A stretch of 16,307 nt of DNA from a virus: IMG/VR virus record IMGVR_UViG_3300045988_104128, positions 1 through 16,307 of that record, one strand, 5' to 3'. Positions 2,701 to 16,307 of the stretch are shown here, piece by piece (position 1 is the first letter of the stretch; each line of letters opens with the position of its first letter). The notes beneath the pieces were generated by a model. It had not been told where the DNA came from and made no database searches. It worked only from the letters and a program-made list of their open reading frames with translations. A program made the translations under genes and the position numbers.

Positions 2701-3033
2701 ATGAGAAAACCAATGGTCACACGTACAATTATTTCAACAGCAGTAAAAGCATTATGTGTAAATCCACAGACAGCAGATACTTTTGAGCAGGATTTTACAC
2801 TTAGTGGTAAAATTCTCGAAAAAGACAAGGCTTTAAGAAAAGCATCAAAACTTTATAACACAGATGAATGTACAATCGTTGCAATTCGTGAACTTAAAGA
2901 AGTAAATGAGCTTTACGGTATGGATGAAGCAGATTTTATTGCAGGTGCAAAAATACTCGACCCTGCTACACGTAAAGAGATTGAGACAGAGCAGGCAGAC
3001 GCAGAAATAACAGAGCAGGCAAACGCAGAATAA
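2701..3033 (+). CDS. phi29 p6-like dsDNA-binding (histone-like) protein, paralogue B (110 aa, acidic Q/E/A tail)
   Basis: ATG at 2701 has the same AAAAGGAGACAAAA leader as paralogue A; the track start at 2632 is a non-ATG upstream extension. The acidic tail ETEQADAEITEQANAE resembles the phi29 p6 tail. The gene order p6-SSB-TP-Pol matches phi29 genes 6-5-3-2. Confidence 0.75.
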   Translation: MRKPMVTRTIISTAVKALCVNPQTADTFEQDFTLSGKILEKDKALRKASKLYNTDECTIVAIRELKEVNELYGMDEADFIAGAKILDPATRKEIETEQADAEITEQANAE

Positions 3034-3055: not shown

Positions 3056-3412
3056 ATGGCAATTACAATTAACACACAATCAAAGGATTTCACAGAGGTA
3101 GAACAGTATCTTATGACCCTTGACAGAGGTATTAAGTCTCTTAAGGACGTAGAGGACAATACATCTTTTCCAGTGGCAGGCTATCTTACATTCACAGATG
3201 AAAAAGACAATGGTGATAGCGTTGACATTTTGTCTATCATTACACCTGACAAAGAGGTATTCTCTTGTCAGTCAGCTACTTTCAAGCGTAGTTTTGATAA
3301 CATTACCAACATCATGCACGACAAACAGTTTAGTATCATTAAAGTTAGTGGTACAGCAAAGAACGGCAGATCTTATATTGACTGCGCACTCGATGTGAAA
3401 TCAGTAAAATAA
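3056..3412 (+). CDS. phi29 p5-like single-stranded DNA-binding protein (118 aa)
   Basis: SD AAAGGAGA lies upstream. The C-terminal FSIIKVSGTAKNGRSYIDCALDV parallels phi29 p5 FKVKVVQGTSSKGNVFFSLQLSL as I recall it. The gene sits between the p6-like gene and the TP/Pol pair. Confidence 0.65.
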   Translation: MAITINTQSKDFTEVEQYLMTLDRGIKSLKDVEDNTSFPVAGYLTFTDEKDNGDSVDILSIITPDKEVFSCQSATFKRSFDNITNIMHDKQFSIIKVSGTAKNGRSYIDCALDVKSVK

Positions 3413-3485: not shown

Positions 3486-4025
3486 ATGGCAAAAAAAAGA
3501 TTATCAAAAAACCAACAGCAATATGCTAAATTAATCAATGAAGCTATAGAACAGAATATAAGCGTAAAAGGTATTAAGGCTTTTCCAAAACATATAACAC
3601 AGCAAACTTTACAAGATTTAGCAGAAGAAATACAACAAAGAAAACAAGCACAACAGCATACTATTACTGATGAAATAATATCACGTTTACAAGCATTACC
3701 AACTAAAAAAGTAACATATGATAAAGCTAATGGAACTCAATATATTATTGATTTATCAGAGTTTACTAATACGTGTTTATCAATAATAAAAAATATGCAG
3801 GAAACGTTTGGTATAGAAGAATACGAAGAATATTTGCAGAAAAATGCTGAGGATATTATAGACTCATTAGATACTATTATTAAAACGCATTATAGTGGTG
3901 AAGTGTCAGCAGAGACAGAACGTATTATACCTATATTATCAAATCACGATATGTCAATGGCTACTGCAACAATGACAAGTGATATTAATGACTATTTTAA
4001 TTGGTCTGATATTGATAATATATGA
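3486..4025 (+). CDS. Putative terminal protein (179 aa)
   Basis: The gene lies immediately upstream of the protein-primed polymerase gene and overlaps it (ATGA), as phi29 gene 3 does with gene 2. The basic N-terminus MAKKRLSKNQQQYAKLI recalls phi29 TP MARSPRIRIKDNDKAEYARLV. The C-terminus is acidic. No other ORF is a better candidate. The assignment is by position. Confidence 0.5.
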   Translation: MAKKRLSKNQQQYAKLINEAIEQNISVKGIKAFPKHITQQTLQDLAEEIQQRKQAQQHTITDEIISRLQALPTKKVTYDKANGTQYIIDLSEFTNTCLSIIKNMQETFGIEEYEEYLQKNAEDIIDSLDTIIKTHYSGEVSAETERIIPILSNHDMSMATATMTSDINDYFNWSDIDNI

Positions 4026-5965
4026 AAAATGTACGTTCTTTTATGTGTGATTTTGAAACTACTGTATATGCAGGACAGTCATCAACAGAAGTATGGGCTA
4101 GTGCTAGTGTAGAATTTTATACAGAGAATGTAAATATTTTTCATTCAATAGGTGAGCAGTTTCAATATTTTAAAACATTAAATTGTAATGTAATAGCTTA
4201 TTATCATAACCTTAAATTTGACGGCAATTTTTGGTTGTCATATTTATTACAAAAATTAAAAATGAAACAGGCTTTTATTCCATACAATGATGAGGGTACA
4301 GTAGGTGAATTTTTAAAAAATAAAGAAATGAAAAATAATACTTTTAAATATACAATATCATCAATGGGACAATGGTATTCGATAACTATAAAAACAAATA
4401 ATCACATAATAGAATTAAGAGATAGTTTAAAGTTATTGCCATTTTCTGTAAAGCAAATAGGTAAATCTTTTAACACTAAACATCAAAAATTAGAAATGGA
4501 ATATACCGGTTATAGATATGCAGGATGTAATATAACGGATGAAGAAAAGAAATATATAGCAAATGACGTATTAGTAGTAAAAGAAGCACTCGAGCAGTTG
4601 TTTAATGATGGACATGATAAACTAACAATAGGTTCATGTTGTATGGAAGAATATAAAAAATCATTACAAGCATATGATTATAAAGAATTATTCCCACCAT
4701 TGGATGAAATCGAAATTGATAAAAATATATTCGGTTCAAGTAATGCTGATGAATATATACGACGTAGTTATAGAGGGGGTTGGTGCTATTTAGTAAAAGG
4801 AAAAGAAAATATTATTAGACATAATGGTGTGACAGCAGATGTAAACTCTTTATATCCTAGTATGATGCACTCTCAAAGTGGTAATTATTTTCCAATAGGT
4901 AAACCATATTTTTGGACAGGTAATATAATACCTAATGAAGCTATAGGTGAAAATAAATATTACTTTTTAAGAATAAAAACACGCTTTTATATCAAAGAAA
5001 ATATGTTACCATTTATACAGATAAAAAGTAACTACTTATATAAAGGAACAGAGTCATTATCTACAAGTGATATTTTAAATAAAGACGGGACGTATAGTAG
5101 GTATTATAAAGATATATACGGCAACTTACATGACAGTACAGTAATAATGACAGTAACCATGACAGATTACAAACTAATGTTAAAACACTATGAACTAGTT
5201 GATTTTGAAATTTTAGACGGATGTTGGTTTTATTCCATGAAAGGAATATTTGATAACTACATCAATCATTATGCAGAAATTAAAATGAACAGTAAAGGTG
5301 CAAAGCGTACAGAAGCAAAACTGTTTCTCAATAACCTTTATGGTAAACTTGCTAGTAGTTCTAATAGTAGTTTTAAGGTTGCATACGTCAAAGATGACGA
5401 CAGTATAGGCTTTTACATAGTCCCTGCTAATAATAAAAAGGTAGGTCATATAGCAACAGGCAGTGCAATAACATCCTATGCCCGTAACTTTACGATAACA
5501 GCCGCTCAAAAAAATTACTATGGTGTAGATAAAGCAGGATTTATTTACGCTGACACTGACAGTATACATTGTGACTTGCCTGCTGATAAGATAAAAGGCA
5601 TAACAGTAGACCCTGTAAAATTTTGCTGTTGGAAGCTTGAAAGCAGTTGGGACACAGCTATTTTTACAAGGCAGAAAACATACATAGAACACATAACTCA
5701 CAACGATTTAGTTCCTGTTGATGAACCATATAACGATATTAAATGTGCAGGAATGCCACAGAAATGTAAAGATTTATTTAATAAATCAATGCAGGGTTAT
5801 GAAGCAAAGGAGAGTGATAACTATACGCAAAGGGAATTAAAATTCTTAGAAACAAAAAGAGACTATAGTGATTTTAAAGTTGGGTTATGCGTTCCCGGAA
5901 AATTGCTACCAAAAAGAATTAAAGGTGGTGTATTATTGGTGGACACAACTTATGAAATGAGGTGA
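4022..5965 (+). CDS. Protein-primed family-B DNA polymerase (phi29 gp2-like, 647 aa)
   Basis: Motifs seen: ExoI CDFETT, ExoII YHNLKFDGNF, ExoIII YIANDVLVVKEAL, motif A DVNSLYPS, motif B KLFLNNLYGKLAS, motif C IYADTDSIH, KxY RQKTYIE, and C-terminal GGVLLVDTTYEM. All are close to the phi29 polymerase motifs. Confidence 0.97.
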   Translation: MKNVRSFMCDFETTVYAGQSSTEVWASASVEFYTENVNIFHSIGEQFQYFKTLNCNVIAYYHNLKFDGNFWLSYLLQKLKMKQAFIPYNDEGTVGEFLKNKEMKNNTFKYTISSMGQWYSITIKTNNHIIELRDSLKLLPFSVKQIGKSFNTKHQKLEMEYTGYRYAGCNITDEEKKYIANDVLVVKEALEQLFNDGHDKLTIGSCCMEEYKKSLQAYDYKELFPPLDEIEIDKNIFGSSNADEYIRRSYRGGWCYLVKGKENIIRHNGVTADVNSLYPSMMHSQSGNYFPIGKPYFWTGNIIPNEAIGENKYYFLRIKTRFYIKENMLPFIQIKSNYLYKGTESLSTSDILNKDGTYSRYYKDIYGNLHDSTVIMTVTMTDYKLMLKHYELVDFEILDGCWFYSMKGIFDNYINHYAEIKMNSKGAKRTEAKLFLNNLYGKLASSSNSSFKVAYVKDDDSIGFYIVPANNKKVGHIATGSAITSYARNFTITAAQKNYYGVDKAGFIYADTDSIHCDLPADKIKGITVDPVKFCCWKLESSWDTAIFTRQKTYIEHITHNDLVPVDEPYNDIKCAGMPQKCKDLFNKSMQGYEAKESDNYTQRELKFLETKRDYSDFKVGLCVPGKLLPKRIKGGVLLVDTTYEMR

Positions 5966-14827: not shown

Positions 14828-16069
14828 ATGAGTAACGGTTTAATTAACAGACAGTATGTAGGTGCTAGGTATGTGCCAAAGATTATGGGTGAGTGGAATA
14901 AGGCTTTGCAGTATGAAGCATTGAGTGTGGTAACGTATATGGGTAATAGCTTTACAAGTAAAGTGCCAGTGCCTGCTAATGTAGAAATTAATAATACAGA
15001 CTATTGGGTGAATACCGGTAATTACAATGCGCAGGTAACAGAATACAAAGAAATGGTAGAAAAAGAAATTGAAGATAGAAAAAATGCTGATACAGAAATA
15101 TCAGATAATTTAACAAATGAAATAAATAACAGAAAAAATGCTGATAAAGATAATATTTTATGGATTGGGGATTCTTACAGCGTGAACTATAACCACAAAT
15201 TACCTAATGGTGTTCGTGATATGTTAAATGCTAAAAATTGGTATGAGCATAGTAGAGGTGGCGCAGGTTTTGCAGGTGCATGGGGTGGTATTGACTTTAA
15301 TGGTTTAATTGAAGAAGCCAAAAATGAAATGACTGATACCCAAAAAGAAATGATAAAGTATGTGTATATAGTTGGCGGTGCTAATGATAGTAGTTTTACT
15401 TGGACTGAAATTAAGCCTAAAGTTATTAGTACTGTTGCTAATGCTAGAAATAGTTTTCCTAATGCACAAATTTGTTTTATATTTGCTAGTAGTGCATATA
15501 CTACTTACACAAATTTACTTATTAAAACTACAAATATATCTAACGATAAGATAATGCCTTGCATATTTGCTATGCCATATTATTATTTAACTGGCGCATT
15601 TTACAATGACGATAATTTACATTATACAGAGGGAGCAACTAATTATATTATAAGTGTTATATCTAATTTAATATGTGGTTCAAGTTATATTCCGACTATC
15701 ACATATAATGTTGCACGTTCTTGCTTTGAGGGTTGGACACCTATTAGTAAACAACTACAAATTTCCGCACCTAGTGGTGTAATAAAAATATCAACCTCAT
15801 ATTTGTCTTTATCAAAAAGTGTTGAACAGCCTTTTGAAACTGACGAATATGGTAATACTATATTATTAAAAAGTAAACCTATTAGCGATACTGACAGAGA
15901 CGTATTTCCACTAAGACCGACTAGAATGTATGTGCAAGTAAAAATTAAAGGTACTATTTATACTGATTATTTAGAGTGCGAATTAAATGATACAACACAT
16001 CAATTAATATGGACAACAGATAATTCATACCCTGCTACCAAAGACATGATTATAAAAATTATAGGATGA
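14828..16069 (+). CDS. Tail fibre/appendage protein with central SGNH/GDSL hydrolase (esterase) domain (413 aa)
   Basis: The N-terminal YVGARYVPK...W...YE...SKVPVP motif is typical of a fibre anchor. A repeated RKNAD helical segment follows. All four SGNH blocks are present: I LWIGDSYS (Ser116), II SRGGAGFAG, III GGANDS, V DNLH (aa 262-265). A beta-rich C-terminal domain of about 125 aa completes the protein. Confidence 0.85.
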   Translation: MSNGLINRQYVGARYVPKIMGEWNKALQYEALSVVTYMGNSFTSKVPVPANVEINNTDYWVNTGNYNAQVTEYKEMVEKEIEDRKNADTEISDNLTNEINNRKNADKDNILWIGDSYSVNYNHKLPNGVRDMLNAKNWYEHSRGGAGFAGAWGGIDFNGLIEEAKNEMTDTQKEMIKYVYIVGGANDSSFTWTEIKPKVISTVANARNSFPNAQICFIFASSAYTTYTNLLIKTTNISNDKIMPCIFAMPYYYLTGAFYNDDNLHYTEGATNYIISVISNLICGSSYIPTITYNVARSCFEGWTPISKQLQISAPSGVIKISTSYLSLSKSVEQPFETDEYGNTILLKSKPISDTDRDVFPLRPTRMYVQVKIKGTIYTDYLECELNDTTHQLIWTTDNSYPATKDMIIKIIG

Positions 16070-16080
16070 TATTAGACACC

Positions 16081-16109
16081 TAAGCACGTGTATAAACTGC
16101 TTATTTTTT
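16081..16109 (+). terminator. Weak candidate terminator of the late operon
   Basis: TAAGCA-N11-TGCTTA forms a 6-bp stem followed by TTTTTT. It starts 12 nt after the fibre stop. The stem is short and the loop long. Confidence 0.4.
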
Positions 16110-16160
16110 GTACCACGCTAACGTGCTAACGCTGTACCACTGCAATGCGTCACCACTTTA
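16110..16160. repeat. Internal direct copy of the terminal 51 bp of the right end
   Basis: 16110-16160 matches 16257-16307 at 50 of 51 positions. The single difference is A at 16120 versus G at 16267. The orientation is the same as the right terminus, and the offset is 147 bp. Confidence 0.92.
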
Positions 16161-16188
16161 CCACTGCGCGGTGCTAGGGAAGTACCAT
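16111..16188. repeat. Array of TACCAY motifs phased at exactly 24 bp
   Basis: TACCAC starts at 16111, 16135 and 16159, and TACCAT at 16183. A further 24-bp pair lies at 16258 and 16282 inside the ITR, mirrored as GTGGTA at 21 and 45 in the left ITR. Confidence 0.8.
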
Positions 16189-16212
16189 TTTGGTCGAAGT
16201 GAGGAACTGCAC

Positions 16213-16307
16213 TACTATGGTACTAAGTTAGACACAACTAACTTCGTGCGCTCACGGTACCACGCTGACGTGCTAACGCTGTACCACTGCAATGCGTCAC
16301 CACTTTA
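16213..16307. repeat. Right inverted terminal repeat (95 bp)
   Basis: Exact reverse complement of 1-95. Confidence 0.95.

Follow-up and report, generated by a model that had tools for sequence, protein, structure and literature searches.

A probable buried former terminus and a 24-nt phased repeat array at the right end of a phi29-like gut phage genome

Inverted terminal repeats (ITRs) of at least 100 bp on a genome replicated by terminal-protein priming are familiar from the phages Cp-1 (236 bp) and PRD1 (about 110 bp), and we know of no report, and our literature searches turned up none, of 24-nt phased units, variation in unit copy number or buried termini in phages of that type. To our knowledge, buried terminal repeats are otherwise known only from adenovirus laboratory mutants: Haj-Ahmad and Graham reportedly described, in 1986, adenovirus type 5 mutants with embedded inverted terminal repeats. 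More generally, the lengthening, upkeep of identity and exchange of ITRs in protein-primed genomes (phi29-like phages, tectiviruses, adenoviruses, linear plasmids) are poorly documented in nature. Consistent with what a first-pass annotation of the present DNA had surmised, our literature searches on phi29-like phages found no description of an internal terminus copy, nor of natural layered buried termini or unit-structured ITRs.

The closest described system for the ends of such a genome is the complex formed by phi29 protein p6, which binds DNA with a dimer every 24 bp and a monomer every 12 bp, has recognition regions at 46-68 and 62-125 from the ends, and recognises a bendability pattern, not a sequence motif (PMC4974454). 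Template switching by the phi29 DNA polymerase in vivo is known to give defective subgenomic molecules, which form at internal sites (Murthy, Meijer, Blanco and Salas, 1998, cited in PMC4974454).

The DNA analysed here (hereafter “the window”) is a stretch of 16,307 nt, a 16.3-kb phi29-like genome with genes nearly all on the + strand, in which the last ORF stops at 16069 and the entire right-end repeat region lies 3' of the ORF end. A human-gut contig from ENA (ERZ909704 k127_13740, 16371 bp; hereafter “the twin”) differs from it by 1 mismatch in 11480 nt (99.99% identity), and the precomputed Pfam matches of this twin (PF03175, PF05352, PF25622, PF16838/PF20934 and PF05894) correspond to a family B protein-primed polymerase, connector, phi29 capsid, tail knob and Gp16 ATPase, i.e., the gene set of phi29-like (picovirus-type) phages on a linear genome of 15-20 kb. 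The ITRs that such phages carry at their physical DNA ends are represented as well (95 bp in the window, 127 bp in the twin). GenBank phages yield distant relatives only (73% identity over the capsid gene, ends unresolved), the nearest being Clostridium phages CS229P1-3, which are placed among the phi29-like phages by a review (PMC11476376). A 179-aa ORF (3486-4025) directly upstream of the polymerase gene occupies the position of the terminal-protein gene in phi29; it received no Pfam or PHROG name, a related-locus search with it gave no confirmed match, and an Rfam search of the whole window returned no family. The source is a phi29-like, protein-primed gut phage, and the membership features that sequence could test suggest that it replicates as a phi29-type protein-primed replicon.

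Two of its small products had been labelled p6-like, and this label is weakly supported by remote profile matches. The 635-919 product (+ strand, 94 aa) matches phrog_6370 at E=1.5e-5 over profile positions 2-91 of 101, and the 2701-3033 product (+ strand, 110 aa) at E=4.8e-6 over positions 1-98 of 101, for a family that phi29 p6 itself matches at 3.5e-40. The resemblance holds at the level of these full-length PHROG matches (E ~1e-5) and not beyond, as neither paralog matched the Pfam p6 family PF17548 at E<=10 or phi29 p6 by BLASTP. The two are 31% identical to each other and have basic N-termini (MRKSKMVTRT and MRKPMVTRT, respectively), and 2701-3033 lies upstream of a 118-aa ORF (3056-3412), the 179-aa ORF and the polymerase gene (4022-5965), so that a small protein with a basic N-terminus precedes the polymerase as in the phi29 order 6-5-4-3-2. 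It is plausible that these two remote p6 homologues, the obvious candidates, would bind the array described below.

Evaluation of the contig ends argues that the window does not reach the ends of the DNA. The last 51 nt (16257-16307) had been taken in the first-pass annotation for the last 51 bp of the genome and for a replication-origin terminus, a placement that the twin and the relatives contradict. The twin outruns the window by 32 nt at both ends: its right end reads ...CACCACTTTA/CCACTGCGCAGTGCTAGGGATGTACCATTTTG, i.e., ...CACTTTA/CCACTGCGCAGTGCTAGGGATGTACCATTTTG (the slash marking the window end), and its left end is the reverse complement, adding CAAAATGGTACATCCCTAGCACTGCGCAGTGG upstream of the left end of the window. 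The twin was itself probably cut short by the assembler, since its 127-nt ITR equals the MEGAHIT k. A comparison set of ~50 IMG/VR relatives at 92-98% portal identity tells the same story where contig ends are preserved: both ends reach 53-76 nt beyond TAAAGTGG. Some 25 relatives do so, with 5'-CCCTGG or 5'-GGGG at their limits. Among left ends, 7 contigs begin exactly GGGGTCGTTTCG and 4 begin CCCTGG; on the right, 4 finish ...CCAGGG (including two independent ENA assemblies by different assemblers) and 4 finish ...GACCCC, from MEGAHIT and other assemblies. In contig 099438, Illumina adapter is fused to both ends, to the left one at GGGGTGGTTTCG and to the right one at ...CGAAACCACCCC (GGGG.../...CCCC), and this fusion marks the physical DNA ends. 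Because the twin and the relatives continue 32 to 76 nt outward at both ends, TAAAGTGG would be the start of one internal 24-nt unit in a longer ITR and not the genome terminus, despite its resemblance to phi29's 5'-AAAGTA. The window would then stop ~52 nt short of both true DNA ends, and the 51-mer does not sit at a physical DNA end. Exact-pattern scans of JGI metagenomes and IMG/VR for the outer ITR and the junction of the window gave no match, and the true terminal ~20 nt of this phage were therefore not recovered. A start at (T)AAAGTGG is common, within 1 nt, to the window (both ends), L104:1 and L111:1, and could reflect either an assembly break at a 24-nt unit of variable copy number or a real minor DNA end. 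Broadly speaking, perfect ITRs at contig ends, even with a phi29-like AAAGT start, are no proof that a metagenomic phage genome is complete.

Read inward, the ITR of this phage would consist of a terminal segment of ~26 nt, a series of 24-nt units and a 44-nt hairpin-containing element; across the clade, ITR length ranges from ~45 nt (099438) to >250 nt. Phi29 has an ITR of 6 bp, whereas a GTGGTAC head is here repeated 4-5 times in an ITR of ~100-150 bp. In the window, the inner 95 nt of the left ITR (1-95, + strand) form a perfect 95-bp inverted repeat with 16213-16307; the left copy contains 24-nt units b and a (1-51) followed by the 44-nt element (52-95), and the right copy (16213-16307, + strand) contains the 44-nt element (16213-16256) followed by units a and b (16257-16307). 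A stem-loop in the 44-nt element (ACTAAGTTAG / CTAACTTCGT, an inverted repeat at 16222-16247, + strand) is kept in relatives and present at the left end too, within 61-86. Every unit carries a GGTAC or GGTAA head, which reads GTGGTAC on the left-end strand and TACCAC on the window + strand at the right end.

These heads account for the TACCAC/TACCAT motifs that had been noticed 24 bp apart at 16111, 16135, 16159 and 16183, and which we recovered as four TACCA heads in 24-nt phase (16111-16187, + strand). The further 24-bp pair claimed for the ITR is there as well (TACCA at 16258 and 16282); with two more heads beyond the window, this terminal set is 3 nt out of phase with the first. When one 147-nt unit was shuffled with dinucleotides preserved and any 5-mer at any lag of 10-40 was considered, a chain of four at one lag, such as that of TACCA, arose in 0 of 5000 shuffles (shuffle maximum 3, in ~1%). 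The 24-bp phasing is non-random and intrinsic to a single copy. This upholds the earlier view that phasing is not only a by-product of the duplication at this end, and removes the argument given for it, namely that two motifs lie outside or straddle the duplicated segment: all four fall within that segment (at least 83 nt) once the ENA extension is counted.

Aligned in a 24-nt register counted from the innermost head, the left ends of 24 relatives keep that register, as the proposed comparison of related genomes was meant to reveal; type B ITRs have 4 heads and type A ITRs 5, and 25-27 nt separate the outermost head from the physical end. Information peaks at -2 to +4 (GTGGTAC) and at +12 to +15 (GCRC) across 96 pooled units, of which only ~5 unit classes are independent. 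Whole units are also gained and lost: the b unit, which contains TAAAGTGG, is missing from about eight relatives (L028, L042, L055, L014, L029, L016, L030 and L132), L131 has duplicated a units and L140 duplicated b units, L033 has a 48-nt rearrangement, and L176 is without 48 nt, i.e., two units. At contig ends of a more distant clade (60-69% portal identity), which may be incomplete, no 24-nt array was found. Separately, the last 300 nt of one such distant contig (L079, IMGVR_UViG_3300029503_000026, 68% portal identity) hold ~10 tandem copies of a 27-nt unit.

A stretch of 24 bp makes 2.3 turns of relaxed B-DNA, and the period fits, by inference, a wrapping complex better than same-face binding. 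The likeness to the phi29 p6 complex extends to a protein-primed phage with the same family of small early dsDNA-binding protein (phrog_6370, here a remote match), and to an array tens of nt from the ends with a 24-bp period and a 12-nt sub-signal, here on the DNA side only; it differs in that the present phage has two paralogs of remote homology (no Pfam or BLAST match). Most likely, the 24-nt units provide phased sites for a candidate origin-organising protein. With an ITR of conserved 24-nt units and two remote homologues of p6, this phage provides a substrate defined by sequence on which 24-bp p6 wrapping could be tested outside Bacillus phages.

The right end of the window carries more than this ITR. 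A 51-nt direct repeat with one mismatch, 147 nt apart (16110-16160 and 16257-16307), was found as first annotated, and comparison of the repeats also bore out the asymmetry of the two ends, the left being without a second copy. Counting the ENA extension, the duplication grows to at least 83 nt with 3 mismatches (96% identical): the 32 nt added by the twin are homologous to window 16161-16192, with 2 mismatches. Overall, the right end amounts to 1.7 copies of a 147-nt unit. The inner copy comprises ITR units a and b (16110-16160, + strand) and then, in what looked like a spacer (16161-16212, + strand), the remainder of unit c, a GTACC at 16182-16186 and 26 more nt; this spacer and the outer ITR segment of relatives are homologous and agree in length to within 1 nt.

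What lies just inside this copy is equally informative. Between the last gene and 16110 stands an element unique to the right end (ACACCTAAGCACGTGTATAAACTGCTTATTTTTT, 16070-16109, + strand; weak hairpin and T-run), which directly adjoins the ITR in simpler relatives, being kept just upstream of the only right ITR in L060, L020, L063 and L041, and which is also present in relatives whose last genes differ. A terminator scan made no call on the T-run element at 16083-16109, and its sole find was a weak hairpin within the buried unit c. Alignment of 16083-16212 against the only right ends of the same four relatives gave a common upstream flank (AGCACGTGTATAAACTGCTTATTTTT), after which the 51-mer and its continuation match as well; the inner copy ends within 1 nt of the stop in L060, L020 and L063, and extends 26 nt beyond the outermost GGTAC head, vs. 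25-27 nt in relatives ending CCAGGG or GACCCC. Because flank, 51-mer, continuation and end length all match the only right ends of relatives, 16110-16212 appears to be an older right terminus in its entirety, with its end at 16212 +/- 1, and orthologous to the only right end of the simpler relatives. It is in effect an embedded terminal repeat, a full-length terminal copy at an internal site joined to non-terminal DNA. Its last 6 nt are CTGCAC, vs. CCAGGG or GACCCC in relatives, and the phage's own true terminus, with which they might be compared, was not among the sequences recovered.

From 16213 on, the left end is repeated in reverse complement, beginning at left position 95. The real discontinuity is thus 16212/16213 (...GGAACTGCAC/TACTATGGTAC...), an ITR boundary that sits inside an imperfect palindrome (GTACCATAGTAC) and is also present in the ENA contig. 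The template switch had been placed instead right after CACTTTA, a position that fails since the TACCACTGC found there simply opens the next ITR unit and comes after the terminal copy as well. With the junction at 16212/16213, the true ITR of the phage would measure ~147 nt, vs. ~103-127 nt in simple relatives. Two of the three differences between buried and terminal copies hit positions that are the same in nearly all other aligned sequences, and one substitution in the buried copy disrupts a perfect 12-bp palindrome (CACTGCGCAGTG, at window 16162-16173) that is kept in the outer ITR of nearly all relatives and reads CACTGCGCGGTG, i.e., broken, only here. This single case hints at relaxed constraint, and it is probable that the buried copy has stopped serving for initiation and is starting to decay.

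Buried termini are not peculiar to the window. They occur in 10 of 40 informative right ends (those that keep ITR sequence), namely in the window lineage, L174, L178, L019, L030, L039, L044/L107, L045, L062 and L064; the junction is different in each lineage, and each was found in a single lineage. In every case the acceptor is inner left-end sequence, and the donor breakpoint lies at, or a few nt from, the positions where contigs of relatives end (in 099438, the adapter-fusion point). Acceptors are confined to the left-terminal ~235 nt, at few recurrent sites and none elsewhere. One is a palindrome (GTACTATAGTAC), used in the window and its twin (CTGCAC/TACTATGGTAC), in L174 (CCAGGG/CTATGGTAC, at least 2 copies), L062 (CCCCCAGG/ACTATAGTAC), L064 (GACCCCC/TATAGTAC), L039 (GACCTCACCC/TATAGTAC, twice, with copies that differ) and L178 (CCAGGG/ATAGTAC). 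Two outer layers of L178 were joined just inside this palindrome (GACCC/AATATATAGTAC and GACC/AATATATAGTAC), L019 (CCAGGG/ATTGTGAAC) and L045 (GACCCC/ATTGTGAAC) ~20 nt inside it, and L030 (GACCC/ATTATAACGG) and L044/L107 (CAGG/ATATAGGTCAG, at both ends) at the -10 box of an early promoter. The recurrence of acceptor sites could stem from one old event followed by recombination instead of a mechanistic hot spot.

In L178 (ENA ERZ28564368 scaffold_2135, last 330 nt), three former termini are nested at one right end: the innermost is a much-deleted remnant of type A, the layers outside it are of type B, and the copies have diverged. Such layering, judged from the sequences, implies that ITR types may pass between lineages. 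As copies here are diverged or partly deleted, they are not assembly-graph loops. Older layers are deleted or decayed in both L062 and L178, and most relatives are without a buried copy. Overall, the clade constitutes a readable record, with former termini at varied depths and exact breakpoints in a quarter of relatives, which makes ITR growth by end-jumping countable and testable.

It is tempting to speculate on how such ends arise. In the scenario that we favor, 16110-16212 would once have formed the physical right end, the place that its counterpart still occupies in simpler relatives, and the terminal ~147 nt of the left end would later have been copied, inverted, onto its outside, extending the ITR from ~103 to ~147 nt and burying the old end. 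The phage DNA polymerase, on arriving at the 5' end of its template, might jump to an easily melted, TATA-containing site on the displaced left-end strand and then copy to the 5' terminus of that strand. Such a jump would yield the observed product, an old end followed by n nucleotides of the left terminus in reverse complement, and end-jumping of this kind (a template switch to the left end) is the likely mechanism. Of the earlier proposal that the internal copy is a relic of slide-back or template switching, an event of the template-switch type is thus the best reading, while slide-back is not supported. The parallel with phi29 is that a strand-displacing, protein-primed polymerase would leave its template and continue on another strand; the difference is that the switch would occur here at the template end and yield a viable genome with a longer ITR. 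The likeness to the adenovirus type 5 mutants lies in a protein-primed linear genome with a complete terminal repeat placed internally near one end; those are laboratory constructs or mutants, whereas the present copies are natural, recurrent (10/40), layered and decaying. Inspection of the junctions by eye revealed no clear microhomology (at most 1 nt), and the acceptor sites are TATA-rich, which may mean simply that they melt easily. With two copies in place, unequal pairing could gain or drop copies (as in L039, L044 and L174). A model of panhandle 3'-extension was rejected, since with a flush panhandle the first event would have no template overhang to copy.

We give this whole account (a contig ~52 nt short of its ends, an old end buried under an appended left-end copy, and 24-nt units acting as a protein-binding array) a probability of roughly 0.7, and several other explanations have to be set against it. 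For the array alone, the units might be a neutral minisatellite produced by replication slippage and without binding function, which is possible though doubtful: whole-unit gains and losses are frequent and flanked by a 9-nt repeat (GCAGTGGTA), yet the heads stay in phase with the physical end even between ITR types with different unit bodies, and information is concentrated in GTGGTAC and +12 to +15. The right end itself might be an artefact, the genome ending at ~16212 and everything from 16213 onward being a spurious extension, due either to chimeric reads from library ligation or PCR or to a graph mis-join with the left end in reverse complement, in which case the three mismatches would be differences between left and right ITRs. 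The assembly-graph topology is identical under both models, the ITR of the ENA contig equals k=127, and every junction is a singleton; window proteins were moreover found on 4 contigs only, searches with three of these proteins always led to the same single ENA contig, and the 4 contigs possibly derive from one sample, which the window and the twin may share. However, simple relatives have near-perfect ITRs, low-depth links between high-depth unitigs would be expected to be pruned by MEGAHIT, and the nested, diverged and partly deleted copies of L178, L062 and L039 exceed what one chimeric link can produce. A junction that exists only as a minority form or an in-vitro chimera is unlikely, because acceptor sites are restricted to few recurrent sites of the left-terminal ~235 nt, the junctions come from MEGAHIT, SPAdes and other assemblers and from several samples and projects, and the layers are nested and decayed; we regard the artefact as a whole as improbable on the same grounds.

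If the buried terminus is real, it might be maintained by selection, whether as a working spare origin, as a nested origin or as an addition to the origin complex, and could serve for rescue after end erosion or be used in panhandle pairing like the embedded ITRs of adenovirus. Completeness to within 1 nt and 96% identity with the terminal copy speak for this, as do the presence of such copies in a quarter of relatives and the start of three contigs at (T)AAAGTGG, which resembles the phi29 terminus. Protein-primed initiation nevertheless requires a template 3' end, a buried copy is absent from most relatives, older layers have been deleted or have decayed (L062, L178), the buried and terminal arrays are out of phase by the 3 nt noted above, and the b unit with TAAAGTGG is itself absent from ~8 relatives; that the substitutions of the buried copy hit otherwise uniform positions adds a weak argument, and we find selection for a spare origin hard to credit. 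Least credible of all is that TAAAGTGG is the true terminus and that slide-back or a template switch, right after CACTTTA, produced the internal copy. The perfect 95-bp ITR does begin at TAAAGTGG, its likeness to 5'-AAAGTA is real, and the 9-nt TACCACTGC recurs at the supposed switch point, but the twin and ~25 relatives run on with homologous sequence at both ends, the adapter-fused physical ends of one relative lie further out, and TACCACTGC, as the head of the next unit, also follows the terminal copy. Returning to end-jumping, a bolder version that we hold to be a long shot would make terminal accretion regular and possibly adaptive: the polymerase would jump onto its own or a co-infecting left end and install a new ITR, even of another type (L178), buried termini, along with a sequence-specified 24-bp array bound by the two p6 paralogs, would act as backup origins or an extended origin complex, and the (T)AAAGTGG starts could mark a second, nested initiation site of phi29 type.

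Several further observations were made on these genomes. At the ends of relatives, the early-promoter region is among the ~270 nt of left-end sequence that recur at the right end of L028 (IMGVR_UViG_3300045988_069413, last 270 nt), and the left end of contig L106 is an inverted snap-back centred on the palindrome CACTGCGCAGTG. Two public contigs retain library sequence: IMGVR_UViG_3300045988_099438 still carries TruSeq adapter (L140:1-22 and the last 26 nt of L051), and the left end of IMG/VR contig …095171 carries Nextera transposase sequence (L135:1-48). Within the window, a 40-nt repeat with ribosome-binding sites (604-643 and 2670-2709, 70% identical) precedes the two p6-like paralogs, and a 51-nt repeat, again with ribosome-binding sites (1141-1191 and 1376-1426, 82% identical), precedes two neighbouring small ORFs; both suggest that genes may have been duplicated along with their leader sequence. 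Finally, the interval between the first gene and the first p6-like gene (534-600) contains two hairpins with 7-bp stems (GGGTCGG..CCGACCC and GCTGATA..TATCAGC), which might act as paired terminators or belong to a packaging RNA.
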